Notes: a model not told the origin generated them from the sequence alone. Numbered from the stretch's first letter, positions 4,898 through 51,494 are shown. The stretch is DNA of 64,000 nucleotides from a virus (IMGVR_UViG_3300018432_000002:1-64000); one strand, 5' to 3'. Translations and numbers: made by a program.

Positions 4898-5082
4898 CCG
4901 GCCGCTGCCCGATCGACCCCGACTGCGACCGGCATGTCTTCCCCGCGCCGCCGCCTGAGGCTCGGTTGCGGGAGTTCGTGGAGTTGGTGGCCCGCCTGGA
5001 CGAGCCGGGTGTGCCGCCGTTCGGCGACCGGGGCATCACCTCGCATGATCTGGCTGCCGCGGCGCGGGAGGTTCTCGGATGA
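4894..5082 (+). CDS. hypothetical protein
   Basis: GTGA/ATGA coupling, high GC3. Confidence 0.5.
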   Translation: MTGRCPIDPDCDRHVFPAPPPEARLREFVELVARLDEPGVPPFGDRGITSHDLAAAAREVLG

Positions 5083-5864
5083 GGACCTTCAACCTGTTGG
5101 CTGAACCGCGCCGGATCGCCTTCGCCGGCGACTGGCACATGAACGTCCGCTGGGCCGAGCGTGCGATCCGGTGCGCCGTAGACCAAGACGCTGACGTGAT
5201 CGTTCACGTCGGCGACTACGGCTACGACTTCCATCCCGGCTTCGTGCGCAAGGTTGAGGAGGCGCTGACCCGGGCCGGTATTCCGCTGCTGTTCGTCGAC
5301 GGCAACCACGAGGACTTCACCCTGCTGCTTCAGCAGCCGGTCGGCGGGGACGGTCTGCGCCGGATCAGCGGGCATGTGGCGCACTTGCCGCGCGGTTTCC
5401 GCTGGGAGTGGGCTGGCGTGCACTTCCTCGCCATGGGCGGTGCGCATTCGGTTGACCGGCCGTACCGGGTGCCTGGTGTGTCGTGGTGGCCGGAGGAGAC
5501 GATCACGGCCCGGCAGGTGTATGAGGCCGCGGAGCCCGGCACCACGGATGTTCTGATCTCGCACGACTGCCCGCACGGTGTTGTCATCCCCGGCATCGAC
5601 GACCGCACCAGCCCGCCACCGTTCTCGCCGGCCGAGATCGAACGGTCCAACGAGCATCGGAAGTTGCTGCGGGTGCTGGTGGAGCAGGTGCAGCCGTCGG
5701 TGATCTGGCACGGCCACTACCACGTCGGCTATCAGGCGGTCGCTGACCTCGGGTACGGCCCGGTTGTGGTGAACGGCCTGGACTGTGACGAGACGACGCT
5801 GGACGCGAACGTCCGGGTAGTTGATGTGGCTGACCTACTGGTACGCCCGGGAGGTGGGCTGTGA
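5079..5864 (+). CDS. calcineurin-like metallophosphoesterase
   Basis: Motifs GDWH, HVGDYG, DGNHED, GGAH, SHD, GHYH in canonical order. Confidence 0.85.
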   Translation: MRTFNLLAEPRRIAFAGDWHMNVRWAERAIRCAVDQDADVIVHVGDYGYDFHPGFVRKVEEALTRAGIPLLFVDGNHEDFTLLLQQPVGGDGLRRISGHVAHLPRGFRWEWAGVHFLAMGGAHSVDRPYRVPGVSWWPEETITARQVYEAAEPGTTDVLISHDCPHGVVIPGIDDRTSPPPFSPAEIERSNEHRKLLRVLVEQVQPSVIWHGHYHVGYQAVADLGYGPVVVNGLDCDETTLDANVRVVDVADLLVRPGGGL

Positions 5865-7155: not shown

Positions 7156-7356
7156 ATGCCCAAGCACGCAGACGACGAGCTGGTCCTGTTCGGCTACAGC
7201 AGCGACTTCAATGTCGGCTTCGAGGATCGCCACGGCGATGACCGGGGGGTGACTTGGGGCGAGTGGCGTCAGATGAACTCGACCGAACGCGAACGGGTCA
7301 TGCAGGAGTACGTCAACGAGCTGGTTGAGGTCTTCGTCGTGGACGGAGAGAACTGA
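7156..7356 (+). CDS. hypothetical acidic protein
   Basis: AAAGGAG RBS upstream; TGATG coupling with the next gene. Confidence 0.6.
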   Translation: MPKHADDELVLFGYSSDFNVGFEDRHGDDRGVTWGEWRQMNSTERERVMQEYVNELVEVFVVDGEN

Positions 7357-8138
7357 TGAGCACCACCAGCAAGATCGAATGGACCGAGAAGACGTGGAAC
7401 CCCACCACCGGATGTGACCGCATCTCCCCCGGGTGCGACAACTGCTACGCCCTCACCCTCGCCAAGCGACTCAAGGGCATGGGCCAGGCCAAATACCAGA
7501 ACGACGGAGACCCGCGAACCTCCGGCCCTGGCTTCGGCCTGAGCGTCCACCCCGACTCCCTGAGCGAGCCGCTGCGCTGGCGCAAGCCCACCGTCGTGTT
7601 CGTCAACTCCATGTCCGACCTGTTCCACGCCCGAGTCCCCCGCGAGTTCATCGCGCAGGTCTGGGACGTCATGGCCCGAACGCCGCAGCACACCTACCAG
7701 GTGCTCACGAAACGGCCCGAGCGCTTGCCCCGAGTGCTCGCTGACCTGCCCGAGCTACCGAACGTGTGGCTCGGCACGTCGATCGAGTCCGACGATTTCA
7801 CCCGTCGCGCAGACTCCCTTCGTGCTGCGCCGGCCGCCGTCCGGTTCATCTCCGCCGAACCGCTGCTCGGCCCGCTCCCGTCGCTCGACCTGAGTGGGAT
7901 CGACTGGCTGATCCTCGGCGGCGAGTCCGGCCCCGGCTCCCGGCCGCTCGACCTGGGCTGGTTCCGCGAGCTAATCGCTATGGCCCGAGATTCGGGTACC
8001 GCCGTGTTCGTCAAGCAACTCGGCTCTGTCTGGGGGCGTGGCGCTGGCGCCGACAACAAGGGCGGCAACTGGTCCCTGTGGTCTGACTGGCTCCGAGTCC
8101 GGGAGTACCCGCGCATTGCCGAGGCGGTGGCCCGATGA
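7356..8138 (+). CDS. phage Gp37/Gp68 family protein (DUF5131)
   Basis: N-terminal IEWTEKTWNPTTGCDRISPGCDNCYA and FVNSMSDLFH / ISAEPLLGP / LILGGESG blocks are characteristic of this family. Confidence 0.85.
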   Translation: MSTTSKIEWTEKTWNPTTGCDRISPGCDNCYALTLAKRLKGMGQAKYQNDGDPRTSGPGFGLSVHPDSLSEPLRWRKPTVVFVNSMSDLFHARVPREFIAQVWDVMARTPQHTYQVLTKRPERLPRVLADLPELPNVWLGTSIESDDFTRRADSLRAAPAAVRFISAEPLLGPLPSLDLSGIDWLILGGESGPGSRPLDLGWFRELIAMARDSGTAVFVKQLGSVWGRGAGADNKGGNWSLWSDWLRVREYPRIAEAVAR

Positions 8139-11270: not shown

Positions 11271-12226
11271 TGGCCTGGGGACGCATGGACGACGGCTTCG
11301 ACGACCACCCAAAGGTGGTTGCGCTCCTCGACGAGGACGACTTGGTGACTGCCGGGGTGGCGATCGGCCTCTGGACGCTGTGCTGGACGTGGGCGCACCG
11401 CAACACCCGCAAGCGCGGCAAGACGCCCGGCCTGATTCCTGCTGGGCTGCCACGCCGTTTCTTTGGACCGGCCGGGAAGGACGCCGCGCAGCTACTCGTT
11501 AAGCACCGCTTGTGGGATTCGGCTGACGACGGCGGGTGGTTCATCCACGACTTCGAGGACTTCCTGCCGACCGAGGAGACCCGCGAGGCGCGCGCGGAGG
11601 CTGGCCGGCGTGGAGCCGCTAAGCGCTGGGCCGGTCACCAGAAAGCCGCAGAAGCGGACGAAGAGTCTGCCGAGGATGGCAATTTGCCATCGGCTTGCCA
11701 TGACGCTGATAGCAACGCGGTGGCAAGCGATGGCTCGCGCGCGCCGGCGCGCTGGGATTCCCACTCCCATACCCAATCCCAAACCCAAGAAGAAGATCTA
11801 CCTTCGGTAGATCTGTTTGGGGCGGCTGCGCCTGCCAAGAACGATACGAAGCAGAAGCCCGCAAAGGCGGCACCGAAGACGGCGACGCGTATCCCCGATG
11901 ACTTCTCTGTCTCGGAGCCGATGAAGGCTTGGGCGGCCGAGAATGCCAAGCTCGTCGACTGGCCTGCCGAGACTGAACACTTCGTCGACTATTGGCGGGC
12001 ACGGGCAAAGGACGACACTAAGAAAGACTGGGCAGCAGCGTGGCGTACTTGGCTGCGCAATGCCCAGAAGGACCTCGAAGGACGTGGCGTCACCCGGCGA
12101 TGGCAGGCCGGCACAGAAAACCAAGGACGCGCCGGCCCTGAATTGGGTCGCCGGTCCGGAGGCGTCCCGAGTCAGCACAAGCCCTTCAAGAACCCACCCA
12201 TCGACGCCTACCACGGAGAACTGTGA
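11270..12226 (+). CDS. replisome organiser / replication initiation protein (DnaD-like N-domain), tentative
   Basis: Sits directly upstream of the DnaC-like loader; N-domain WGRMDDGFDDHPK...GLWTLCWTWA...; ATG 11270 overlaps the previous TGA. Confidence 0.55.
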   Translation: MAWGRMDDGFDDHPKVVALLDEDDLVTAGVAIGLWTLCWTWAHRNTRKRGKTPGLIPAGLPRRFFGPAGKDAAQLLVKHRLWDSADDGGWFIHDFEDFLPTEETREARAEAGRRGAAKRWAGHQKAAEADEESAEDGNLPSACHDADSNAVASDGSRAPARWDSHSHTQSQTQEEDLPSVDLFGAAAPAKNDTKQKPAKAAPKTATRIPDDFSVSEPMKAWAAENAKLVDWPAETEHFVDYWRARAKDDTKKDWAAAWRTWLRNAQKDLEGRGVTRRWQAGTENQGRAGPELGRRSGGVPSQHKPFKNPPIDAYHGEL

Positions 12227-12966
12227 TGACCCACCCGACCAGTTTCAGCCGCGAGTTCGACCAGGTGATGTCTCCGCGTCAGCGCGCCGAGGCCGAGTTG
12301 GACTCAAGCTGCACCCGCCATCCGGAGCATGCGTTCGTCGGTTGTCCTCGGTGCAAGGTTGAAGAGCGCATCGAGGAGAAGCGGGAGATCGCCGCGGCTG
12401 CTGCGGAGAAGTGCCGGGAGCGTTTCCCGTTGCGCTACCGGGACGCCGAGGTGCAGAACTCGACGGTGGACGAGTGGGTGCGGCAGTTCCAGAACGATTA
12501 CCGGCATGCGCCGTCGCTGCTGCTGATGGGCCCGACGGGGACGGGGAAGACGCATGCTGGCTACGCGGCGCTGCGGATGGCGGTGTCGGTGGCGTGGGTG
12601 GCGCCGTCGGGTGCGATCCGGTCGCCGAATTGGCAGGCGATGACGTACGCGGACCTGTGCGCTTCGCTGCGCCCTCGGGGCCGTGACTACGACACGGAGG
12701 CGGTGCTTAAGACGTACCGGGACACGAGCCTGCTGTTCATCGACGACTTGGGTGCCGGGAAGGTGTCGGAGGCGGTGGAGGAGGTCACATACCGCCTGGT
12801 GAATGACCGGTACAACGACATGCGCCCGTCGATCTTCACCACGAACCTGTCGTTGCAGGCGCTCAAGGACGCAGTCGGCGACCGGATCGCGTCGCGGCTG
12901 GCGGAGACGTGCACGCGGGTTGTTCTCGACGGTCCTGACCGCCGCCGGCAGGTTCGAGCTGCCTGA
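12223..12966 (+). CDS. DnaC/IstB-like AAA+ helicase loader
   Basis: Walker A GPTGTGKTH, Walker B LLFIDDLG, NDRY...IFTTNL. Confidence 0.85.
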   Translation: MMTHPTSFSREFDQVMSPRQRAEAELDSSCTRHPEHAFVGCPRCKVEERIEEKREIAAAAAEKCRERFPLRYRDAEVQNSTVDEWVRQFQNDYRHAPSLLLMGPTGTGKTHAGYAALRMAVSVAWVAPSGAIRSPNWQAMTYADLCASLRPRGRDYDTEAVLKTYRDTSLLFIDDLGAGKVSEAVEEVTYRLVNDRYNDMRPSIFTTNLSLQALKDAVGDRIASRLAETCTRVVLDGPDRRRQVRAA

Positions 12967-21279: not shown

Positions 21280-22527
21280 CCGCATTGCCCTGTGGTCTGG
21301 GGCAGTCCGCTCGGGAAAACGATCGCCTCTCTGATCGCCTTCGTGCTTGCGGTCAGAGAGGCCCCCCACTCGGGCCTGATCATCATTGCGGGGAGAACCC
21401 TGCAGACGATCGAGCGAAACCTGCTTGACCCGCTTCAGGACCTCGCGCTGTTCGGCGCTGTCGCAGACACGGTCCAGCACACCCGAGGATCGAACGTTGC
21501 CGTCATCCTCGGCCGCACCGTGCACCTCATCGGCGCGAACGACTCGCGTAGCGAAGGCCGTCTTCGAGGACTCACTGCCTGCCTCGGCATGATTGACGAG
21601 GCCACGCTGGTACCGAAGGCCTTCTTCACGCAGTTCCTGGCCCGGCTCTCCGTTCCCGGTGCACGCCTACTCCTTACAACCAACCCTGATTCACCTGCGC
21701 ATTGGCTGCGCAAGGAATTCATCCAGCGGGCCGGCGAACTCGACCTTGCCCACTTCCACTTCACTCTCGACGACAACCCGTCCCTGGCCCCTGAGTACGT
21801 CGCCGCCATCAAGGCCGAGTTCACCGGCATGTGGTTCAAGCGAATGGTCCTTGGACTCTGGGTTTCCGCCGAGGGCGCCGTCTACGACATGTGGGATTCG
21901 GACCGCCACGTCATCGACATCATCCCGCCGATCTGGCGGTGGATCTGCGCCTCCGTCGACTATGGGACGTCAAATCCGCTGCATGCGCTCCTGCTCGGCA
22001 TCGACGCCTCCCAGACGATCTACGTGGCGTCGGAGTGGCGCCACAGTGCTCGGGATACCCGGCGTTCCCTGACGGACGCCGAATACTCGGCCGAACTGAA
22101 GAAGTGGCTCGCCGACTACCGGCAGCCCGGACTTCAGGCGACCGGAGTGACGCCCGAGGCGATCGTGGTGGACCCGTCCGCCGCATCGTTCATCGAGCAA
22201 CTGTGGCGCGACCGGATGACCCCCACGCCAGCCGACAACAGCGTGGCCGACGGCATCCGCCTCGTCTCCTCGGTGCTCGGCGCCGGGAAGTTGAAAGTCC
22301 ACCGCTCATGCAAGGCGCTCATCGATGAGTTCCCCGGCTACTCGTGGGACGACAAGAAGGCGCTGCGCGGCGTGGACGCGCCGATCAAGGTTGATGACCA
22401 CGGGCTGGACGCGCTGAGGTACGGCGTAAAGACCACCGAGAGTGCCTGGCGCCGACCGAACGGCTTCCAGATGCCACATACGCCCCGCCCGTTCGACGAG
22501 GTCGACCTTATGGGCGCCGCTATGTAG
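21212..22527 (+). CDS. terL: terminase large subunit. It reads intact only with a -1 shift at 21313-21319 (frame A 21212..21319, frame B 21319..22527)
   Basis: Frame A gives MNPAPTLALSPKQ...LWSGAVRSGK and frame B continues TIASLIAF...; together they form Walker A GAVRSGKT and a protein of about 438 aa. Confidence 0.8.
21313..21362 (+). promoter_or_regulatory. candidate -1 programmed ribosomal frameshift signal (G_GGA_AAA + 5-nt spacer + 10-bp stem-loop)
   Basis: The heptamer is in the correct 0-frame phase; GCCTCTCTGA (21325-21334) pairs with TCAGAGAGGC (21353-21362); 0-frame TGA at 21332-21334. Confidence 0.55.
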
Positions 22528-22545: not shown

Positions 22546-23979
22546 GTGACCGCACCGACCTCCGTCAAGGGCTATGTCGACCCGTATGCGCTGGGCAACA
22601 GTTGGGGTTCGCTGTACAGCGATCTGCTCGAGCATGTCCCAGACCTGACGTTCCCCATGTCCATTCCGGTGTATTCGCGGATGCGGCGTGACCCGAAACT
22701 GTCCTCGATCAATCAGGGCTGGACGCTCAACCTGCGGCGCTGCCAGTGGCAGCTAGATCCGGCCGGCTGCCGGCCCGAGGTCGTGGGCCTGGTCGCTGAC
22801 GGCATGGGCCTGGCGATCAAGGGTGCGGACAAGCCCGGCGCTGCCCGCCTGCGTGGTGTCTCCTGGGGTGACCATCTCGCTGCGGCGCTGCGGATGGTGC
22901 CGTTCGGCTTCGCCGCGTTCGAGATCGAAGCTGAGGCCGGCGACAAGGCTCAACTGTCCGGGCTGTGGGAGCGCCCGCAGTGGACGATCTCCCACCTGCA
23001 CGTCAACGGGAAGACCGGCCTGCTTGAAGGCGTCACCCAGGATCAGGCGGGCAAGCTTGAATCGCCGCAGATCCTGGCGAAGAACATGGCGTTCTACGTG
23101 CGGGAGCGCGAAGGCAGTAACTGGGCGGGTACAAGCCTGCTGCGAGCTTCATATGCTTCCTGGCTGATCAAGGAAGAGGTCCGGCGAGCCTACGGGGTCG
23201 CAAACGTCCGCTGGTCTGCCGGTGTGCCGGTAATGGAAGCACTGCCCGGGACCAACCCGACACCCGCCCAGATGGGTGAGGCTGCGCAGATGGCGCAGGC
23301 CTCCCGGGCGGGAATCGCCGCGGGTGCCGCATCGCCGCCAGGATTCACTCTGCGGATCAAAGGCATCGAGGGTGGCCTGCCGAACTCGCAGGAGTTTCTT
23401 CGCTACCTCGATCAGCAGATGACAGCGTCCACGCTGATGGGCGCATTCGACCTGGGTGATACCCCGAACGGGTCGCGGGCGCTCGGGCAAGTGTTCATGG
23501 ACTCGTTCCTGCTTGCCCTGGAGTCCGAGGCCGAACTGGTCGCCGACGTCGCTACCCGGCAGATCGCTGCCCGAATCGTGGACTGGAACTACGGCGAAGA
23601 CGAACCTGTCCCGCGTGTGGTGGCGTCCGGTGTCGGTTCTCGCCGTGAGGTGACCGCCGAGTCCCTGCAGCTGCTCCTGTCATCTGGGGCTCTCGCGGCC
23701 GACCCTCGCCTTGAGGCGTGGGTGCGCCGCGAATACCGGCTACCCGAACGTGACGGTATGGCTTTGCCGAAGGTGACCGCTCCGGGAGTTGAGCTCAAGC
23801 CCGACGAAGACGAGCCGGCCACCGACACGGACCCGGACGACCTGCCTGCTGATGTCGCAGCACGGCAGGCCGACCTGGACTGGGGCCTGTTCGGCGGGGC
23901 CAAAGCCGACCAGCCGGAACAGCCGTCACTGTTCGACGACGACGAAGCCGTTGATCTCGGGGCCTTCGCCCCGGCCTGA
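22546..23979 (+). CDS. portal protein
   Basis: 477 aa immediately after TerL; acidic C-terminus; the sequence pattern recalls Mu gp29/DUF935-type portals. Confidence 0.8.
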   Translation: MTAPTSVKGYVDPYALGNSWGSLYSDLLEHVPDLTFPMSIPVYSRMRRDPKLSSINQGWTLNLRRCQWQLDPAGCRPEVVGLVADGMGLAIKGADKPGAARLRGVSWGDHLAAALRMVPFGFAAFEIEAEAGDKAQLSGLWERPQWTISHLHVNGKTGLLEGVTQDQAGKLESPQILAKNMAFYVREREGSNWAGTSLLRASYASWLIKEEVRRAYGVANVRWSAGVPVMEALPGTNPTPAQMGEAAQMAQASRAGIAAGAASPPGFTLRIKGIEGGLPNSQEFLRYLDQQMTASTLMGAFDLGDTPNGSRALGQVFMDSFLLALESEAELVADVATRQIAARIVDWNYGEDEPVPRVVASGVGSRREVTAESLQLLLSSGALAADPRLEAWVRREYRLPERDGMALPKVTAPGVELKPDEDEPATDTDPDDLPADVAARQADLDWGLFGGAKADQPEQPSLFDDDEAVDLGAFAPA

Positions 23980-23994: not shown

Positions 23995-26325
23995 GTGGCC
24001 GCCCGCAAGTTCGACCCGGCACGACACCCGAGGGACCGGTTCGGCCGCTTCACAAAATCCCGGACGGTCAAAGCGTCGGCGAAGGACAAGGCCGCGGCCC
24101 GGGAGGTTGCCGAAGGCTTCCAGCCGCAGGCGGTCGGCCGCCAGGAACGTGCCGCCTACCTGCAGCGGATTGCCGGCAGTCAGCCCACCGACGCGTTCGG
24201 GGATGTGCTCGAGGCGAACAAGGCGCTGCGTTCGGGTAAGGACTCGGACGCTGCCGAACGGCTCAAGGCCGCTGCGGTTGAACTTCCGGACGACATGCTG
24301 CTGTCCCGGGCGGTCCCCCTGTCGGTGTTTGGTCGCACTGACCCGCAGTCGCTGCAGGGCATGAAGGTCCGCGACGCAGGGTTCGCACCGGCGCAGCTCG
24401 GCACCGTCCGGCCCGTCGCCGACCACGTGCGCATGCACATGGCGGTTCCTGCGGGCACGCGTGCCGTGGTGAACCCGGAGACAGGCGAGATTGCCCTCGA
24501 CCACGACACCGAGATGGTCGTGGCGAAGGTCGCGGTAAACGATGCAGGCGGCGTCGACATGTGGCTGACTGTCCTGCCGAAGCAAAGCGTGCAGCGATCC
24601 GAGGACGACGGTGAGGGAGGCGACAAAACCAGCCCCACCGCAGACGGTGAGGCTGTCGAAGCGGACGACGCAGGACGCGCCGAGCTGATGAAGCTGAAGT
24701 TGCCTGAGCTGCGTGAACGGATGCGGGAACGTGGGCTGAAGCCGGGCCGTATGCGTAAATCCCAGATGGTCGACGCGCTCGTAGCTGACGAAACTGGCAA
24801 CGACGAGCCGGCAGGCGACACGCCCCCAGAACCCGAACCGCAGGCCGCACCGGATCCGGGGCCGGCCTCGGTCCCGGGCGACCAGACCGCAGCGCCGGCC
24901 ACGGATGCCCGATCGTTCGACGAACGAATCAAAGCCGCCGCCAAGGGCCGTAAAGCCCTCGACGCGATGCCGCTGTCGCTGCTACCCCGCAGCCGCGGCA
25001 ACCCGGACCTGACACCGGAACGCGCGAAGATCCTCCGGAGTCACCTGGTCGGTGAGACCGGGGATATCGACAGGGCACTCCAGAAGGGCGGCGACACCCC
25101 GAAGGCCACCGCCGACCGTGTCGCCGTTTTCGACGGCATCATGCAGGCATCGCCGCTCGGGCAGGACGCCGTCTACTACCGGGGCGCATCCACAACCCGC
25201 GGCATCTTCGGCGACGCAGCGACAGGGGATCTGACCGGCCACGAGTGGGTGGAGCACCGCTTCGCCGAGGTTTCCCCCTCTGACCAGACAGCACAAAACA
25301 TGGCCGGGGGGCGCGGAGCGGTCCTGCGGATCCTCGCCCCTCAGGGCACTGGTGCTGCCGCCATTTCCGGTGGCGCTTCCCAGGAAGTGCTGCTGGACCG
25401 CGGGCACACATGGCGGGTCGTCAAGGATTCGGGGCCCCGACAGAACGCGCCGCGCCTGATCGACGTGGAAATCGTCCCGAAGACCGGTGATGAACCAGCC
25501 CGGATCAAGCCGGTCGAAGTCGAGGTCACCACGGCCGACAATCCACTGTCGGCAGAGCAGGTGGCGGCACTGCCGGACACCCCGCTAGGCCGCAGTATCG
25601 CCTCTGGTGTCGCTTCGTCGAAGACCCTGTCGGGTGGCGCCGTCGGTGATGTGCGGCTGGTGACGTTCGGCGACGGCAGTAAAGCCATCCAAAAGATCGC
25701 CAAGGCCGACTTTGCCGGCTCGTCGCAAACCGACCTGACCGACGGTGAAGTTCTCGCAGGTCGGCTGGGGCGGGCAATCGGCGCCCCCGTGCCGGAGGTT
25801 GTTCACACCCGCCAGTACGAGATTTTCATGGAGTACGTGCCGGCCGCGAAACCCGGCATGGCCGTCCTGAACAGGTACACGGACCTGGTGGAGCGTGCCG
25901 GCAAGTGGGAAGAGTTCGTCGACTCCCGCGACGGACGGCTGCTCGGTGTCCTCGACCTGGTCACGGCGAACGCTGACCGGCATGCCGGTAACTGGCTGGT
26001 CCGTAAGGACGGCACGATCACCGGTATCGACCACGGCCTGGTGTGGTCGAAGCGGCTGACTGGTGCTCCGGATGTGCGCTCCTCCAACCCGGAGTTCGAC
26101 AGCCCGTTCGCCGGAAGGTTCTTCGGCGACAACTTCTCGGAGCGGCGCGGCTGGCAACCGAACGATCTGAGCCCGGCGGACGTTTTGTGGATGCGCCGGC
26201 AGGCCGAAGGGTTGCGGGAAGAGTTTGACCGGCGTGGGCGTGGCGACTGGCTGGACTTCACCCTGACCCGCATTGATCAGCTCGGCGAGTATGCGCGCGG
26301 AACGACGGACAGGGTGGCGACGTGA
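23995..26325 (+). CDS. multi-domain putative virion-associated effector: ART-like domain, SAP/Rho_N-like motif, second ART domain (R, SxS, E present), C-terminal PI3/PI4-kinase-like domain
   Basis: N-terminal HPRDRFGRF motif; ANKALRSG...LSRAV...GEIALD; LKLPELRERMRERGL; ILRSHL...VYYRGAS...VSPSD...SQEVLLDRG; KAIQK...DRHAGNWLV...GIDHG. Confidence 0.7.
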   Translation: MAARKFDPARHPRDRFGRFTKSRTVKASAKDKAAAREVAEGFQPQAVGRQERAAYLQRIAGSQPTDAFGDVLEANKALRSGKDSDAAERLKAAAVELPDDMLLSRAVPLSVFGRTDPQSLQGMKVRDAGFAPAQLGTVRPVADHVRMHMAVPAGTRAVVNPETGEIALDHDTEMVVAKVAVNDAGGVDMWLTVLPKQSVQRSEDDGEGGDKTSPTADGEAVEADDAGRAELMKLKLPELRERMRERGLKPGRMRKSQMVDALVADETGNDEPAGDTPPEPEPQAAPDPGPASVPGDQTAAPATDARSFDERIKAAAKGRKALDAMPLSLLPRSRGNPDLTPERAKILRSHLVGETGDIDRALQKGGDTPKATADRVAVFDGIMQASPLGQDAVYYRGASTTRGIFGDAATGDLTGHEWVEHRFAEVSPSDQTAQNMAGGRGAVLRILAPQGTGAAAISGGASQEVLLDRGHTWRVVKDSGPRQNAPRLIDVEIVPKTGDEPARIKPVEVEVTTADNPLSAEQVAALPDTPLGRSIASGVASSKTLSGGAVGDVRLVTFGDGSKAIQKIAKADFAGSSQTDLTDGEVLAGRLGRAIGAPVPEVVHTRQYEIFMEYVPAAKPGMAVLNRYTDLVERAGKWEEFVDSRDGRLLGVLDLVTANADRHAGNWLVRKDGTITGIDHGLVWSKRLTGAPDVRSSNPEFDSPFAGRFFGDNFSERRGWQPNDLSPADVLWMRRQAEGLREEFDRRGRGDWLDFTLTRIDQLGEYARGTTDRVAT

Positions 26326-27269
26326 ACGGCCGGTTCGAGCTGGTTGACGCCGAAACGGGCGATGTCCTGGACCTGGTGACGTTCACCGACGGTGAGGTTA
26401 CCTACGAGTCGGGGCTGGCCGAGTCGATTGTCGGCACCCGCCGCCGGCTCATCCCTGCCACCGGTGAGCTGCTGGCGTCGTTTGACGGCTGGTCCAACGG
26501 CTACCTGATCACCCGCCTTATTGGCGGTGAAGTTCAGGCAGCTGCGGGCGACACGGACGCCGAACGGATTCAGGCGCAGTGGGATGCGGCGAAAGCCCGT
26601 CTGCTGCGGCGCTGGCCGAAACTCGCGAAGCCGATGGTCGACGAACTCGCATCGCAAGCGGAAGGCCTGGTCGAGACGGGGGATCTGGCCCGGCTCGGTG
26701 AGCTGCAGGCCTCCGCCGGCGTGGTCGCCGCGGTTGCCGTGCCACTACGTCAGTCCGGCACGGACCTTGCAGCCGAGGCGGCTGCGGGCGTGGTGGAGGA
26801 AGCCGCCGTGCAAGACGTGTCGATCGCCGCCCCGGACGCGCCTGGTGTTGAGCGGGTGCGGCAGCACGCCGACGTGGTCGCCCGGATCATCGCGAACGGC
26901 TACGCCTCGGGTGCGGCACGAACGGCCCTGCAGCTGTCGGGCGCCGGGCCGCAGGAAGTCCGCGACGAGGTCGAACGGCACCTGACCGAACTCGGGCAGT
27001 CCACGAACGGTCTCGTCGGTACCGAGATCGGCGGGCTGCTGTCGGCGGCCCAGCACGCCGGACGGCTCGCGGTGCTCGAGCAAGAACCCGGTAACACCGT
27101 GCAGGCGATAGAGATCAACGACCTCAATCGGTGTGAACCCTGCAGCGAGGACTCGAACCGCGTCTTCCCTGATCTACGAGCCGCACTTCAGGTGTACGTC
27201 GTGGCCGGCAACCGGCATTGTCTCGGAAGATCGCGTTGTCGCGGGTACCTCCGCATGATCTGGCGCTGA
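26322..27269 (+). CDS. MuF-like head morphogenesis / minor capsid protein (tentative)
   Basis: Position after the portal; C-terminal D..NRCEPC....V....H.C....RCRG resembles the Mu F/SPP1 gp7 C-terminal motif. Confidence 0.55.
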   Translation: MNGRFELVDAETGDVLDLVTFTDGEVTYESGLAESIVGTRRRLIPATGELLASFDGWSNGYLITRLIGGEVQAAAGDTDAERIQAQWDAAKARLLRRWPKLAKPMVDELASQAEGLVETGDLARLGELQASAGVVAAVAVPLRQSGTDLAAEAAAGVVEEAAVQDVSIAAPDAPGVERVRQHADVVARIIANGYASGAARTALQLSGAGPQEVRDEVERHLTELGQSTNGLVGTEIGGLLSAAQHAGRLAVLEQEPGNTVQAIEINDLNRCEPCSEDSNRVFPDLRAALQVYVVAGNRHCLGRSRCRGYLRMIWR

Positions 27270-27609: not shown

Positions 27610-29364
27610 ATGCCTGACGTCGAACTCGCGCGCCGTGAAGGCGTAGAGCTTGTGAACTCCGGTTCGTGGCAGCTCCTCTCCGGCAGCTGGAACCCGAACA
27701 GCAAAGACATCGCCGACGCTGTTGAAGCGTCCAAATGCCCCGCCGTACGCCGTCCCCGACTCAAACTGGGACACCTGGACGAGCGGTTCAATCCCGCAGA
27801 CAATGCGGTCCTCGACGGCACACCGGCGCTCGGTTGGTTCGACAACCTGCGCGCCAGCGCCGACGGCAACACCCTTGTCGGGGATCAGGTGGCGCTGCCA
27901 TGGCTGTCAGCCGTCCAGCCTGCCGCATGGCCCGACCGGTCGATTGAGGGCAAGTATCAGTCGCAGTGCGCTTTGGGCCATACCCACCCGTTTGTGGTGA
28001 CGGCGGTGTCGCTGCTAGGTGAAACCCCGCCGGGCATCCCGACACTGAAGTCCATCAAGACTCTCGACGATCTGCCCGCCGCCCTTGGTGTGGCGGCCTC
28101 CGGCGAAGCGTCCGAGGGCGGCGAAAGCGTCCAGGCGATCATCCGTGCTTCCGTCGAGGTGCACACCGGCACGATGGTGGCGCTGATCCCCACCGCCGAG
28201 GATGCGGCACGGCTAGCGGTCGGCGGGGGCGAGCCGGCCGACGAGCTGCACTGCACCTTGGCCTACCTGGGTGACGCCGCAGCCCTGGGCGCCGGTGGCC
28301 GCCAGGATGTCCTCGACGGCGTGACCCGTGCGGCGAACGGCCTGCCCGAGATCGAGGCGGACGCTTTCAGCCTGAACGTTTTCAACCCCGGAACGGCCAG
28401 CGACCGGGACACGTGCATTGTGCTCGGCCTGTCCGGCGATCCGATCGACGCCGTTCACGATCTGGTGTCGGAGGCGCTGCGGGAAGCCCTGTGGGATCGG
28501 CTGCTGGAACTGCCGCCCCCGCACCGCCCTTGGCACGCGCACATGACCTTGGAGTACACCGAGGACCTGGCGCGTCTGACCGCCCTCACCGACCGGATCG
28601 GCCCGGTCCGGTTCGACCGGATCCGGATCGCGTTCGGCGGTGAACGCATCGACATTCCGCTGATCCCGCCCAGCGAGGACGAGACGGTGGCCGCGTCGGC
28701 TGCCATCCGGGACCGCATCGCACCGATCCGCGAGCGACTGGCCCGGCTCGAAACCGTCGCCGCTGCGGCAAGCCCCACCTCTGATCTCCCGGCCGCCGAG
28801 CCGGAGCAAGAAATCAACCCCGAACCGATTGAGGAGGACTTTGTGTCCACCGAACTGAGCGGTCTCCGCTCACGGCTCGGCCTGCCCGACGACGCCGACC
28901 TTGCCGCCATTGAGGCGAAGGTCGACGCGATCAAGGCGGACGCCGAGAAGACCCCCGAGCCGACCCCCGAGATGGTCGCTGCTTCCGCCGCCGCCGTCGA
29001 GCAGGCCACCAAGGCTGAGGCGGAGAAGGACGAGCTCCGCAAGGAAGTCCAGGTCCTTGCCTCGCAGATGCAGCAGGTCACCACGGAGCTGTCCGCGGCG
29101 AAGGCAGCCCAGGCTGCCACCGTCAAGGCCAGCGTGTTCGACGCTGCGATCAAGGACGGCAAGCTGAAGCCCGCCGACCGCGAGCAGTGGGAGAAGGACT
29201 ACGACGAGGCGCCGGGCGCGATCACCCGCGTCCTGGCGTCCATCGCTGTCGGCACCGCCGTTCCGGTGATGGCGTCCGGCACCGTCGGTGACCCGGAGCC
29301 GCAAGGCTCCGACGACGACTGGGACGCCATCGTTTCCCGCCTCGACAGCCCGAAGGCGGTCTGA
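27610..29364 (+). CDS. Mu gpI-like protease/scaffolding protein with an embedded 2H phosphoesterase (LigT-like) domain
   Basis: N-domain LGH...ALGWFDNL...DGNTL...SIEG...AVSLLGETPPGIP; two HxT motifs, HCTLAY (nt 28249) and HMTLEY (nt 28540); C-terminal coiled coil ...AAIKDGKLKPADREQWEKDY. Confidence 0.7.
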   Translation: MPDVELARREGVELVNSGSWQLLSGSWNPNSKDIADAVEASKCPAVRRPRLKLGHLDERFNPADNAVLDGTPALGWFDNLRASADGNTLVGDQVALPWLSAVQPAAWPDRSIEGKYQSQCALGHTHPFVVTAVSLLGETPPGIPTLKSIKTLDDLPAALGVAASGEASEGGESVQAIIRASVEVHTGTMVALIPTAEDAARLAVGGGEPADELHCTLAYLGDAAALGAGGRQDVLDGVTRAANGLPEIEADAFSLNVFNPGTASDRDTCIVLGLSGDPIDAVHDLVSEALREALWDRLLELPPPHRPWHAHMTLEYTEDLARLTALTDRIGPVRFDRIRIAFGGERIDIPLIPPSEDETVAASAAIRDRIAPIRERLARLETVAAAASPTSDLPAAEPEQEINPEPIEEDFVSTELSGLRSRLGLPDDADLAAIEAKVDAIKADAEKTPEPTPEMVAASAAAVEQATKAEAEKDELRKEVQVLASQMQQVTTELSAAKAAQAATVKASVFDAAIKDGKLKPADREQWEKDYDEAPGAITRVLASIAVGTAVPVMASGTVGDPEPQGSDDDWDAIVSRLDSPKAV

Positions 29365-29366
29365 TC

Positions 29367-29726
29367 ATGGGTGCCTACGAACCGCAGTTCCTGTACGGCG
29401 ATGTCATCACCGGCACCGCCTCGGCGACGATCGTCGGCGGGCAGACCCTGATCGTGTCCGGCAACGGCACCGTCGGCCCCGCCACGGCCACTTCCCCGGC
29501 CGTCATCGGTGTCGCCGCGTATGACGCCGCGAACACCGAGGACGTGTCGTACTTCCCCCGCGGGAAAGTCCACATCTCCACCGCGTCGGGCTCCATCACC
29601 GCTGGTGCCCGCGTCGACTCCGGTGCCGCCGGCACGGTCGCCTCGGGCGCGGCGTCGGTGAACAACATCGGGATCGCCCTGACCACCGCCGCGGACACCG
29701 CGCTGGTGACGTGGATGGAGATCTGA
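29367..29726 (+). CDS. DUF2190-type head decoration-like protein
   Basis: 119 aa, Gly/Ala/Val-rich beta pattern (VIGVAAYDA...GKVHI...IGIALT); lies between scaffold and capsid. Confidence 0.6.
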   Translation: MGAYEPQFLYGDVITGTASATIVGGQTLIVSGNGTVGPATATSPAVIGVAAYDAANTEDVSYFPRGKVHISTASGSITAGARVDSGAAGTVASGAASVNNIGIALTTAADTALVTWMEI

Positions 29727-29816: not shown

Positions 29817-29834
29817 CTTTTCGTCATGCCCGGA
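29817..29834 (+). repeat. intergenic motif copy 1 (hairpin + CTTTTCGTCATGCCCGGA) upstream of the major capsid gene
   Basis: Shares the exact 16-mer TTTCGTCATGCCCGGA with copy 3. Confidence 0.7.
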
Positions 29835-29861
29835 TACCGGGCGCAAGAAAGGACTACCACC

Positions 29862-30797
29862 GTGCCCGGTGCCTACCCCCCAAGCGGCCCGTCGCTGACG
29901 GGTGACCTGCTCTCCGTCCACCGCCTCCTGCAGAACCCCACCTACCTGCAGCGCCGGCTGCGCGGCATCCCGGACCTGCGGTTCATCGCCGACCGTGTCC
30001 TGACGCAGCGGCTGCGGACCTCCGGCGGTGCGGTGGCGTACGAGATCGGTGAGCCGATCGTGAACGCCCGCCCGATCCGGGCGGTGTCGCCGGGTGCCGA
30101 GTACCCGCGTGACAGCCCGGCCGACGGCACTGCCGCCCTGGCGAAGGTGTCGAAGTGGGGCGAGGCGGTCCCGCTGACCGACGAGAAGCTGAAGCGGTCG
30201 GTGTACATGGGTGACGAGGTGAACCGCACCCTGCGCAAGGCGGCGAACACCATCATCAGCAAGGTCGACAAGCTGACCACGACCGCCGCGGCTTCGGCGA
30301 TCACGGCGACGTCGGCTGCGGCGCAGACGTGGGACAACGCGTCGGCGCTGCTGTTCCGTGACGTGGAGAAGGCCGCGGCGAAGATCGTCGACGCGAACCA
30401 GGGCTACCGCCCCAACACGATCATGATGTCGACGACGAAGTACGCGATGCTCGTCACCGACCCGGCGATCGCCGCCCTCCGCAAGCGGGAGGACTCGACG
30501 AACCCGATCTACGGCGGGTCGATCGAGTCTCTCGGCAAGTACAACATCGTGGCGACGGCGCTGGCGAACCTGCCCTCCGACGACGTGTGGATCTTCGACG
30601 ACAACGAGCTCGGCGGCATGGCCGACGAGAACGAGGTCGACCCGGGCTACGCGACGATGGACAACAACCTGCAGTTCAAGGTCATCCGGAAGGAGTCCCG
30701 CGATGCGTGGGACATCCAGTGCCGGCGGATCACCGTCCCGGTCGTGCTGGAGCCGGCCGCCGGTGTGAAGATCACCGGTACTGGGGCGCTGGGCTGA
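29862..30797 (+). CDS. major capsid protein (HK97-fold type)
   Basis: Position, size, and AAGAAAGGA RBS before GTG 29862 (the ORF-track ATG 29826 lies inside a repeated intergenic motif). Confidence 0.8.
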   Translation: MPGAYPPSGPSLTGDLLSVHRLLQNPTYLQRRLRGIPDLRFIADRVLTQRLRTSGGAVAYEIGEPIVNARPIRAVSPGAEYPRDSPADGTAALAKVSKWGEAVPLTDEKLKRSVYMGDEVNRTLRKAANTIISKVDKLTTTAAASAITATSAAAQTWDNASALLFRDVEKAAAKIVDANQGYRPNTIMMSTTKYAMLVTDPAIAALRKREDSTNPIYGGSIESLGKYNIVATALANLPSDDVWIFDDNELGGMADENEVDPGYATMDNNLQFKVIRKESRDAWDIQCRRITVPVVLEPAAGVKITGTGALG

Positions 30798-50624: not shown

Positions 50625-50937
50625 GGCTGTGACCGCCTGGTGCGAGGAGGGCCCGCTCAACGGCAAGCAGGTTACGGTCACCTCACCGGATGGGTTCATC
50701 GCCACCGACCGCGCCGCCGGCAAGGCGTGGATCTACAAGCGCAGCAGCTCAGACCGGTTCACGCTTTGCTTCGATCATGACAACTCGCTGGTCTACCCGC
50801 AGGGCGTGGACACCGGTGAGCGTCGCATCGACTGGGACCGGCTGCCGCTGGCCACCGACCCGATGAACGAGATCAAGCTGGGCGACAGTGCTGAAGCCCT
50901 GTCTGGGGATCCGGTCGACGACGGCTGGGGGCAATGA
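50617..50937 (+). CDS. hypothetical protein
   Basis: Overlapping-coupled 106-aa ORF. Confidence 0.5.
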   Translation: MSEAVTAWCEEGPLNGKQVTVTSPDGFIATDRAAGKAWIYKRSSSDRFTLCFDHDNSLVYPQGVDTGERRIDWDRLPLATDPMNEIKLGDSAEALSGDPVDDGWGQ

Positions 50938-51494
50938 CCATGCGCTACTTCTACGACTGCGAATTCCTCGAGGACGGCAAGACGATCGAGCTGATCTCGA
51001 TCGGCATTGTCGCTGAGGACGGCCGGGAGCTGTACCTGGTTAGCCGGGACGCCCCGTGGAAGCGGATCAAGAAGGACGAGTGGCTGATGGCCAACGTCGT
51101 GCCGAAGCTCCCGCAGCCGCATGGCGACCGGCGCAACCAGGTGCCGAAGAGCTGGCTGATCGACTTCCACGACCCGGCCGTCCGCGAGCGGGAAGCCATT
51201 GCCAACCGGGTGGCCGCCTTCCTGCTCGGCAACGACCTGGAGACCTACACCGACCTGGAGCTGTGGGCGGACTACGGCGCTTATGACCACGTCGTGCTCT
51301 GCCAACTCTTCGGGCCGATGGTCGCCCTGCCGTCCGGCATCCCGATGTTCACCCACGACTTCCAGCAGGCGCTGCGAGCGGCAGGCAATCCGCCGATCCC
51401 GGAGCAGGCCGCCGGGCAGCACAACGCGCTGGACGACGCACGGCACCTGCGCGCTTGCTTCAACGCTTTGCATGCGACGGCAAGCCATGGCTAG
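50934..51494 (+). CDS. DEDDh 3'-5' exonuclease (DnaQ-like/exoribonuclease-like)
   Basis: YDCEFLEDG (DxE), YGAYDHVVL (D), HNALDDAR (H-x4-D). Confidence 0.8.
   Translation: MTMRYFYDCEFLEDGKTIELISIGIVAEDGRELYLVSRDAPWKRIKKDEWLMANVVPKLPQPHGDRRNQVPKSWLIDFHDPAVREREAIANRVAAFLLGNDLETYTDLELWADYGAYDHVVLCQLFGPMVALPSGIPMFTHDFQQALRAAGNPPIPEQAAGQHNALDDARHLRACFNALHATASHG

Follow-up and report, generated by a model that had tools for sequence, protein, structure and literature searches.

A 2H phosphoesterase domain in a variable slot between a protease-like module and a predicted nested scaffold gene of an actinobacterial prophage

Phosphoesterases of the 2H superfamily are known from the polyvalent proteins of phages, in which Iyer, Burroughs, Anand, de Souza and Aravind (2017), who also cite T4 Alt and DarA/B, described 2H domains fused to MuF and portal proteins and proposed for them either an RNase role or the destruction of defence signals made of 2'-5' oligoadenylate or cyclic nucleotides (PMC5512222). 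Fusions of this kind were later considered to imply packaging and injection, and Nudix effectors fused to a capsid-processing peptidase have also been reported (Iyer et al. 2022, PMC9503650). A recent study by Doherty et al. (2025) covered 75 phage 2H phosphodiesterases (PDEs), 13 of which were multidomain proteins, including 'proteases' (10.1101/2025.08.21.671373). The 2H domain borne by a head protein is therefore already known as a presumptive packaged effector, from comparative genomics, and one related enzyme has been assayed. Here, we describe such a domain in the viral DNA stretch IMGVR_UViG_3300018432_000002:1-64000 (the whole 64,000-nucleotide (nt) stretch is hereafter called the window), where an open reading frame (ORF) in the head module encodes a protein of 584 amino acids (aa) that carries it between an N-terminal protease-like module and a Mu Z-like scaffold module with a conserved nested start. 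We did not find descriptions of this arrangement, of the cassette-like exchange of the slot that the domain occupies, or of the evidence for a 2H domain within the published virion proteomics of Gordonia phage GMA2.

The 2H domain of the long product

The middle segment of the protein is a genuine 2H phosphoesterase domain. When excised, it matched the Pfam family PF13563 (2_5_RNA_ligase2) with 29.6 bits (gathering score, 27; E 8e-7), the full-length protein reaching 26.4 bits, just under the gathering score. Searches of PHROG matched phrog_2659 'RNA ligase' (E 9e-27, and E 3e-26 for the excised segment), and the excised segment also matched phrog_18402 'head maturation protease' (E 1e-22). 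The AlphaFold2 model, which covers aa 171–357 and was built from 32 homologous segments, had a mean predicted local distance difference test score (pLDDT) of 91.3 and a predicted template modelling (TM) score of 0.85, with strands running from aa ~187 to ~350. When this model was compared with the PDB using Foldseek, all 47 matches at E<=1e-3 were 2H-superfamily proteins (TM 0.5–0.64). They included P. horikoshii 1vdx, E. coli LigT, human and yeast Usb1, T. thermophilus 1iuh, Arabidopsis CPDase, AKAP18, Acb1 (7t27) and the phage PDE 9q2y ('BCSR5'), which belongs to the study of Doherty et al. 2025 (10.1101/2025.08.21.671373), together with the viral rotavirus VP3 C-terminal domain (4ye2, 6o3v) and a penguinpox cyclic GMP-AMP (cGAMP) PDE; ns2 of mouse hepatitis virus ranked just under the cut-off. 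In the BFVD database, the model matched actinophage proteins labelled 'RNA ligase' or structural, with E-values as low as 7e-15, and Acb1 entries were found at about 1e-5 to 4e-4. A phmmer search of PDB sequences with the whole protein matched ribosomal protein L14 alone, which we judged to be a chance hit.

In terms of catalytic residues, the domain contains two H-x-T motifs, HCTLAYLG (aa 214–221) and HMTLEY (aa 311–316), spaced 97 residues apart. They open two central strands of the model (model residues 45–52 and 141–146), and the domain profile lines up both with E. coli LigT (Table 1). Among 104 homologous domains of roughly 45–70% identity, H214, T216, and H311 were unchanged in every sequence, whereas at position 313 there were 96 sequences with Thr and 8 with Ser; R201, G207, G221, P307, F335, D336, and R339 were also invariant. 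The four motif residues were likewise constant in 65 proteins of quite different architecture. With both motifs intact and under selection, the domain appears to be catalytically competent. Because its score against the LigT/ThpR equivalog TIGR02258 is far under the threshold (16.1 bits against a cut-off of 65.7) and no match to the Acb1 Pfam family was found, the domain is a member of the 2H superfamily that belongs to neither the LigT/ThpR nor the Acb1 family.

These results bear out the core of a preliminary description made from this DNA alone, which had proposed a 2H domain with two HxT motifs about 100 residues apart. The span that it assigned to the domain (nt 28162–28659, aa 185–350) agrees with the folded domain of the AlphaFold2 model, and both the predicted fold and the conservation of the His-x-Thr motifs in homologues proved to be those of a 2H enzyme. 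It also named Acb1 as a relative in mechanism, correctly in that Acb1 is a 2H-fold enzyme and a structural match, though one that ranks behind LigT, Usb1, and CPDase.

Flanking modules, predicted nested scaffold gene and variable slot

To define the architecture, the three parts of the protein were searched separately against the best 120 homologues. The order N-terminal module, 2H domain, C-terminal module was found in 99 of the 120; 16 had the two outer modules without the 2H domain, and 5 had only the N-terminal module and the 2H domain. Because 99 independent homologues carry the same architecture, a gene-fusion or assembly artefact was ruled out. The homologues came mostly from Actinoplanes, Paractinoplanes, Micromonospora, Polymorphospora, and Verrucosispora genomes and from metagenomes, and one of them (P0001) is an identical protein on a 112-kb contig assembled from SRR6958552. 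The whole three-module architecture was found in none of the isolated phages in a collection of 50,697 phage genomes, and a megablast search of positions 20–40 kb of the window against the same collection gave no match, indicating that the element has no close cultured relative there.

The N-terminal module matched phrog_3894 'head maturation protease' (E 2e-62) and shared 47–50% identity with the N-terminal regions of proteins named 'capsid maturation protease' in Gordonia and Rhodococcus phages. H55, S111, E113, C43, C120, H124, and H126 were invariant in 114 sequences of this module, so that a C-x3-H-x-H arrangement (C120, H124, H126) and C43 occur beside H55/S111/E113; this pattern suggests a His/Ser dyad, a metal site, or both. 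The N-terminal 165 aa had no Pfam match even at E<=1, a profile of the module matched no PDB sequence, and its AlphaFold2 model was of moderate quality (pLDDT 70.7) and gave nothing significant with Foldseek (best E 0.14; the human cytomegalovirus protease ranked ninth with E 0.56). Comparison with Mu gpI using hhalign was not significant, and no similarity to the XkdF-type protease of Arthrobacter phage Kharcho was detected by the same method. The name 'Mu-I-like protease', which the preliminary description had given to this module, is therefore not endorsed here, as Pfam, PDB, Foldseek, and hhalign searches all failed to place it.

The resemblance to Mu gpI does hold for the C-terminal part of the protein, where aa 376–565 matched positions 126–300 of PF10123 (Mu-like_Pro) with 39.1 bits (gathering score, 25.2). 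With BLASTP, the whole protein gave no significant match to Mu gpI, and the link to Mu comes from the Pfam profile only. The sequence DGKLKPADREQWEKDY, previously taken as the end of the protein, corresponds to aa 516–531, and the protein continues for 53 residues beyond it. Within this module, codon 412 (V412) is a GTG preceded by a strong Shine–Dalgarno (SD) sequence, and the 173-aa product that would start there matched PF10123 by itself (positions 156–301, E 4.9e-9). The SD of the full-length start is weaker than the nested one. The linker that contains the start is otherwise variable in homologues, but the motif (K/E)-E-D-x-(V/M/L)-S is kept within it; of 115 homologues, 107 have V as the start residue, 5 have M, and 2 have L. 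At the DNA level, a start-capable codon was present at the nested site in all 13 sequences that have the C-terminal module, namely the window and 12 genome loci (GTG in 10, ATG in 2, and TTG, read as Leu, in 1), and GGAGG or GAAGGAG preceded the start at all 12 loci. In these genes, GTG accounts for 36% of Val codons and TTG for 6% of Leu codons, and an SD-type motif lies upstream of just 16 of 456 in-frame start-capable codons. From codon usage, the naive probability of GTG at 10 of 10 Val positions is 4e-5; such values are not strict for related sequences, although at 45–68% protein identity the synonymous sites are expected to be well mixed. The nested start carries no annotation in the homologues examined.

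Based on the conserved SD and start, the PF10123 match of the nested product, and the layout of Mu I/Z, in which Z begins at codon 179 of I and encodes 183 aa, comparative evidence indicates that the gene is an I/Z-type (lambda C/Nu3-type) pair with a separate 173-aa scaffold. This would confine the 2H domain to the long form. In I/Z-type systems the long form is a minor species, and by analogy this is probably the case here as well, which makes it doubtful that the domain is present in procapsids at high copy, as had been supposed. The motif LPAAEPE is found ~13 residues ahead of the nested start. Its residues A396, E397, and P398 were each conserved in 114 of 115 homologues, including those lacking the 2H domain, and it may mark a site cleaved during maturation or belong to the translation-initiation context.

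The 2H domain and its linkers, ~245 residues in all, separate the N-terminal module from the nested start, and this region varied greatly among homologues. As the preliminary description had thought worth checking, relatives without the insert exist: in P0111 (369 aa), the N- and C-terminal modules are ~5–8 residues apart, with essentially no insert. The remaining 2H-less proteins have 115–520 aa of unrelated sequence in the slot, and many of the 2H-bearing members have an extra 150–400 aa before or after the 2H domain, with no Pfam match except in P0054, where an ADP-ribosyltransferase precedes it. The slot of P0063 likewise holds an ADP-ribosyltransferase. Inserts of 200–520 aa without a Pfam match occur in P0006, P0010, P0025, P0032, P0108, P0114, and P0120, and are possible uncharacterised packaged effectors. 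Of the 14 genome loci fetched, 9 had the 2H domain; those without it were from Paractinoplanes maris, one Micromonospora, Streptosporangium, Dactylosporangium, and Rhodococcus. The N-terminal modules of 2H-less proteins are up to 92% identical to their 2H-bearing counterparts, indicating that the slot content is swapped between close relatives. Judging from these sequence comparisons, the middle of the protein is a swappable cargo slot.

Possible packaging, possible substrates and alternative roles

The 2H domain of the window belongs to a large subfamily. Its profile retrieved 3,935 representatives at E<=1e-3 and 658 at E<=1e-30 from 1.84 billion cluster representatives, in proteins of 216–2,462 aa in which the domain is N-terminal, central, or C-terminal. 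In the 65 proteins from outside the family, the partners were ADP-ribosyltransferase (17), MuF (7), peptidoglycan-binding (5), ClpP-type protease (3), and SDH-type protease (3) domains, as well as zeta toxin, GNAT, PI3/PI4-kinase-like, and Peptidase_S78 (1) domains; a weak match to PF23474 (Acb1; E 9.6e-5) was found in 1 of the 65. The XkdF prohead protease is another fusion partner. Among isolated phages, 343 genomes have the domain (204 Mycobacterium, 117 Gordonia, 17 Streptomyces, and 4 Rhodococcus phages), either in genes labelled 'RNA ligase' or within genes labelled 'head maturation protease' or 'capsid maturation protease and MuF-like fusion'. NCBI and JGI already call many homologues '2'-5' RNA ligase family protein'. 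These labels and 'capsid maturation protease' are probably misleading for actinophage genes, in the case of 'RNA ligase' across several hundred actinophage genomes, with many SEA-PHAGES records among them. The genomics paper on Microbacterium phages reports MuF–protease fusions and is silent on the 2H segment (PMC7302621). A capsid-assembly protein with such an enzyme had been called unusual in the preliminary description, which overstates the case, as 2H fusions of head proteins are widespread in actinophages and have already been described in this sense (PMC5512222, PMC9503650).

Two phages provide experimental precedents. In purified virions of GMA2, only three proteins were detected, Orf10 being one and the portal and major capsid protein the others (Dyson et al. 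2015, PMC4524720 S5 Table). Orf10 (L025:3529-6180) is an 883-aa 'putative structural protein' encoded next to the portal gene, and we found that it ends in a 2H domain of the same subfamily (aa 728–876; hhalign 98.8%, E 5e-17, 32% identity), which was not recognised in that study (PMC4524720). The virion peptides identified by mass spectrometry cover aa 142–846 of Orf10 (PMC4524720 S5 Table), and one of them, SEVGDYDAYTPHITAVTGQQAR (aa 825–846), covers HIT836, the second catalytic motif of its 2H domain. The second precedent is gp87 of Kharcho (L023:17918-19057), a 2H domain joined to Peptidase_S78_2 (XkdF) and encoded after the portal gene, whose 2H domain aligns with that of the window (hhalign 98.1%, E 7e-14, identity ~25–27%). 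This protein is PDE-16 of Doherty et al., who showed that the 2H domain on its own cleaves 3'3'-cGAMP by way of GpA>p (10.1101/2025.08.21.671373). The closest assayed relative is PDE-15, which is gp17 of phage Stormageddon (hhalign 99.6%, E 1e-24, 33% identity). The window protein itself shows the sequence-level features of head-packaged effectors: an effector domain joined to a head-internal protein, a place among late genes, and content that varies between orthologues.

We propose that the 173-aa scaffold would be translated from the internal start at nt 28843 and that the 584-aa long form, since it shares the C-terminal sequence of the scaffold, would co-assemble into the procapsid through this sequence, bringing the N-terminal module (a putative protease) and the 2H domain along as cargo. 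Proteolysis during maturation would free a 2H domain of ~20 kDa, which would most likely stay in the capsid and enter the next host together with the ejected DNA. In that cell, it would hydrolyse nucleotide messengers of immunity, for example cGAMP-type, other cyclic, or 2'-5'-linked oligonucleotides made by CBASS (the system of antiphage signalling that is based on cyclic oligonucleotides) or by type III CRISPR (clustered regularly interspaced short palindromic repeats)-like systems, in a metal-independent, two-histidine reaction via a 2',3'-cyclic phosphate intermediate. We infer each of these steps, namely that the long form co-assembles and that the 2H domain is freed from it, stays in the head, and is injected, and we infer its substrate as well. 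Taken as a whole, this chain, with a co-assembled, released, head-retained, and injected PDE acting on nucleotide immune signals, is in our estimation evenly balanced between being right and wrong. Of its parts, the anti-signalling role is plausible by analogy with Kharcho gp87, whose 2H domain cleaves 3'3'-cGAMP in vitro. A broader form of the proposal can be offered only tentatively, namely that the slot is a general means of loading cargo, so that any insert would be co-assembled via the scaffold, freed at maturation, and injected, the 2H domain being the version pre-loaded against cyclic-oligonucleotide alarm signals, which it would remove as soon as infection begins and with no phage gene expression required.

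Several points weigh against a packaged, signal-degrading enzyme. The normal fate of protease and scaffold proteins is to be broken down and expelled from the head. The N-terminal module is only a putative protease, the basis for this name being the phrog_3894 annotation and the names of database entries. In structure, the domain is closest to LigT, archaeal 2'-5' ligase-like proteins, Usb1, and plant CPDase (E ~1e-7 to 1e-6), with Acb1 (7t27) more distant at E 7e-5, and the Pfam Acb1 family PF23474 gave no match at E<=1 to either the window protein or the domain. Moreover, solo genes of the subfamily, such as Stormageddon gp17 and gp74 of Rhodococcus phage E3, the latter located between the portal and protease genes, occur in head clusters without an obvious capsid-targeting module, so that the common factor could be late co-expression rather than packaging. 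Finally, the substrate range of phage 2H enzymes varies with the structural group, and two groups cleave none of 18 messengers (10.1101/2025.08.21.671373).

Some of these points lead to an RNA-directed enzyme, packaged or not, which would either repair RNA ends that carry a 2',3'-cyclic phosphate after cleavage by host anticodon nucleases or toxin RNases, in the manner of LigT/ThpR or CPDase, or attack host or CRISPR RNAs as a Usb1-like 3' exoribonuclease. The best structural matches (LigT, archaeal LigT-like proteins, Usb1, and CPDase) and the alignment of both motifs with E. coli LigT point in this direction, an RNase role is one of the two options of Iyer et al. 2017 (PMC5512222), and some 2H structural groups are inactive on all 18 messengers (Doherty et al. 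2025). On the other hand, the score of 16 bits is far from the LigT equivalog cut-off of 65.7, and a related fused 2H domain, that of Kharcho gp87, cleaves cGAMP. No RNA ligase, polynucleotide kinase, or Tpt1 was identified among 20 further window genes and the head-module neighbours in a scan that was not exhaustive, and according to Iyer et al. these 2H versions never accompany RNA ligases (PMC5512222). We consider an RNA-directed role rather unlikely. A late cytoplasmic enzyme that is never delivered appears improbable to us. In this case the fusion would merely couple expression to the head genes, the enzyme would act when capsid assembly triggers signalling defences, and any encapsidated copies would be degraded or irrelevant, which would suit both the solo homologues E3 gp74 and Stormageddon gp17, found in head clusters without a targeting module, and the destruction of scaffold and protease parts at maturation that is general in HK97, lambda, and Mu-type heads. 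However, the recurrent partners of the subfamily are all head-internal (MuF, portal, and three unrelated prohead-protease types), a 2H domain of the same subfamily was detected in purified GMA2 virions, and a location between the N-terminal module and the scaffold unavoidably targets the domain to the procapsid. A degenerate 2H fold serving as a non-catalytic spacer or structural domain is very unlikely, even though inactive 2H domains are known among the fold matches (AKAP18-type and mitoribosomal proteins) and close relatives assemble heads without the domain, because both His and both Thr/Ser are kept in 104 of 104 homologues at 45–70% identity, where other positions are invariant too, and across the 65 unrelated architectures.

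If the 2H domain is indeed loaded via the scaffold and injected, nucleotide-based immunity (CBASS, type III CRISPR, and Pycsar-like systems) could be neutralised before any phage gene is expressed, a route that has been a prediction since 2017. The I/Z-type nesting would provide a simple and testable loading mechanism and a natural counterpart of the engineered scaffold fusions used to load cargo into virus-like particles. If the slot does carry cargo in general, the inserts of 115–520 aa would constitute a reservoir of virion-delivered counter-defence enzymes, and those of the sister proteins may represent new anti-defence activities.

Genomic context and comparison with known systems

The ORF sits in the head module between the portal/MuF position and the major capsid gene, in the order terminase, portal, 776-aa protein, two small or unknown ORFs, long ORF, cement-like protein, major capsid protein, and connector (Table 1). 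The 776-aa protein in the MuF position did not match the MuF profile; a PI3/PI4-kinase-like domain was detected in it along with two weak signals, one SAP/Rho_N-like and one for an R-S-E ADP-ribosyltransferase, the SAP and ADPrib_exo_Tox signals being under threshold. Since domains of these types also occur as fusion partners of the 2H subfamily in other proteins, this protein is probably a second head-associated effector. Between it and the long ORF, a 315-aa ORF (26322–27269, + strand) was called on the source contig; it had no Pfam, PHROG, or NCBIfam match and did not pass a gene filter based on GC content at third codon positions.

Table 1. Coordinates of the long product, its parts, and neighbouring head genes in the window
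Feature	Position (nt)	Strand	Evidence
Large terminase	21292-22527		–
Mu-type portal protein	22546..23979	+	PF06074 Portal_Mu, E 3e-38
776-aa protein in MuF position	23995..26325	+	PF00454 E 1.7e-8; SAP E 0.0065; ADPrib_exo_Tox E 0.039
Long product (584 aa): N-terminal protease-like module, 2H phosphoesterase, scaffold module	27610..29364	+	ORF and translation
N-terminal module (aa 1-165), 'capsid/head maturation protease' in relatives	27610..28104	+	phrog_3894; annotation of relatives
2H phosphoesterase domain (aa 186-351)	28165..28662	+	PF13563 above gathering score; AlphaFold2; Foldseek
First catalytic motif H214-C-T216	28249..28257	+	Invariance in homologues; LigT alignment LHLTLAFLG
Second catalytic motif H311-M-T313	28540..28548	+	Homologue conservation; LigT alignment PHITL
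LPAAEPE motif (aa 393-399) in otherwise variable linker	28786..28806	+	Homologue conservation
Shine–Dalgarno GAGGAGG of nested scaffold gene	28831..28837	+	5 nt upstream of GTG 28843
Predicted in-frame nested gene for a 173-aa scaffold, the counterpart of Z in Mu I	28843..29364	+	Conserved start; PF10123
Cement/decoration-like head protein	29367..29726	+	PF09956 E 1.6e-5; phrog_673 E 1.2e-15
Major capsid protein	29826..30797	+	phrog_1650 E 2.4e-71; PF25209 E 1.6e-17

The window has a GC content of 66.8% and is largely a single phage block on the + strand. Outside the head module, it encodes a Gp3-like recombination directionality factor (101–1198, +; E 5e-46), a DUF5131 protein (7356–8138, +; E 2e-84), and an IstB/DnaC-like ATPase (12223–12966, +), which are consistent with a temperate actinophage, and the minus-strand genes from ~56 kb may mark the prophage end. 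Two more enzymes for processing nucleic acids or nucleotides are present in the element, namely a calcineurin-like metallophosphoesterase (5079–5864, +; E 1e-10) and a protein with an Rv2179c-like 3'-5' exoribonuclease domain (50934–51494, +; E 2e-11). The host element is an actinobacterial (Micromonosporaceae-type) prophage with a Mu-like head module.

When compared with known systems, the protein resembles the polyvalent, MuF, and portal 2H proteins of Iyer et al., in which the domain is likewise part of a morphogenesis protein encoded among late head genes, has variable partner domains (ADP-ribosyltransferase, kinase-like, zeta toxin, and GNAT domains accompany it there), and is predicted to be packaged, injected, and active as an RNase or in the degradation of (oligo)nucleotide signals. 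The carriers differ: MuF or portal in those proteins, and in the window a protease-like module together with a Mu Z-type scaffold that has a nested gene, where the 2H domain occupies an internal slot rather than an end of the fusion. Kharcho gp87 is similar in being an actinophage protein, encoded downstream of the portal, in which a 2H domain is paired with a domain of the prohead-protease type, but the order is 2H then protease, the XkdF/Peptidase_S78_2 domain is unrelated to the N-terminal module of the window protein, there is no scaffold module or nested gene, and its 2H domain was assayed in isolation only. GMA2 Orf10, a large protein whose gene directly follows that of the portal, also has a 2H domain of the same subfamily, but at the C-terminus, behind ~700 aa, and with neither an N-terminal module of the window type nor a Z-like scaffold.

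Among stand-alone enzymes, Acb1 of T4 and FBB1 serves these phages in counter-defence by breaking down cyclic oligonucleotides (Hobbs et al. 2022, PMC9117128). It shares with the window domain the 2H fold, the two catalytic histidines, and a metal-independent mechanism, which for the window domain is predicted, and is a structural match (7t27), but it is small (~150 aa) and unfused, whereas the window protein has no PF23474 match and is nearer to LigT, Usb1, and CPDase. E. coli LigT/ThpR is among the best matches of solved structure (5ldm; E 4.5e-7, TM 0.55–0.58), with aligned motifs, but it is a cellular stand-alone enzyme of ~16% identity, and no RNA-repair partner was found among the window genes scanned.

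Enzymes carried inside virions offer a further parallel. The C-terminal domain of rotavirus VP3 is a 2H enzyme inside the virion that degrades 2'-5' oligoadenylate; it is thus a virion-borne fold match, although from a eukaryotic double-stranded RNA virus. T4 Alt, the T4 internal proteins IPI–III, and P1 DarA/DarB are capsid-resident enzymes delivered with the genome, which, as proposed for the 2H domain, are loaded via the assembly core and active at once in the next host; T4 differs in using a short capsid-targeting sequence cleaved by gp21 and no scaffold fusion. In gene layout, Mu gpI/gpZ is a close counterpart, to which the nested lambda C/Nu3 pair is analogous. The window differs from Mu in its insertion of ~245 residues and in an N-terminal module without detectable similarity to Mu gpI, but the two share a Mu-type portal in the head module, a PF10123 C-terminus, a position just upstream of the major capsid gene, and a long product whose C-terminus is a separately initiated scaffold of ~175–185 aa.

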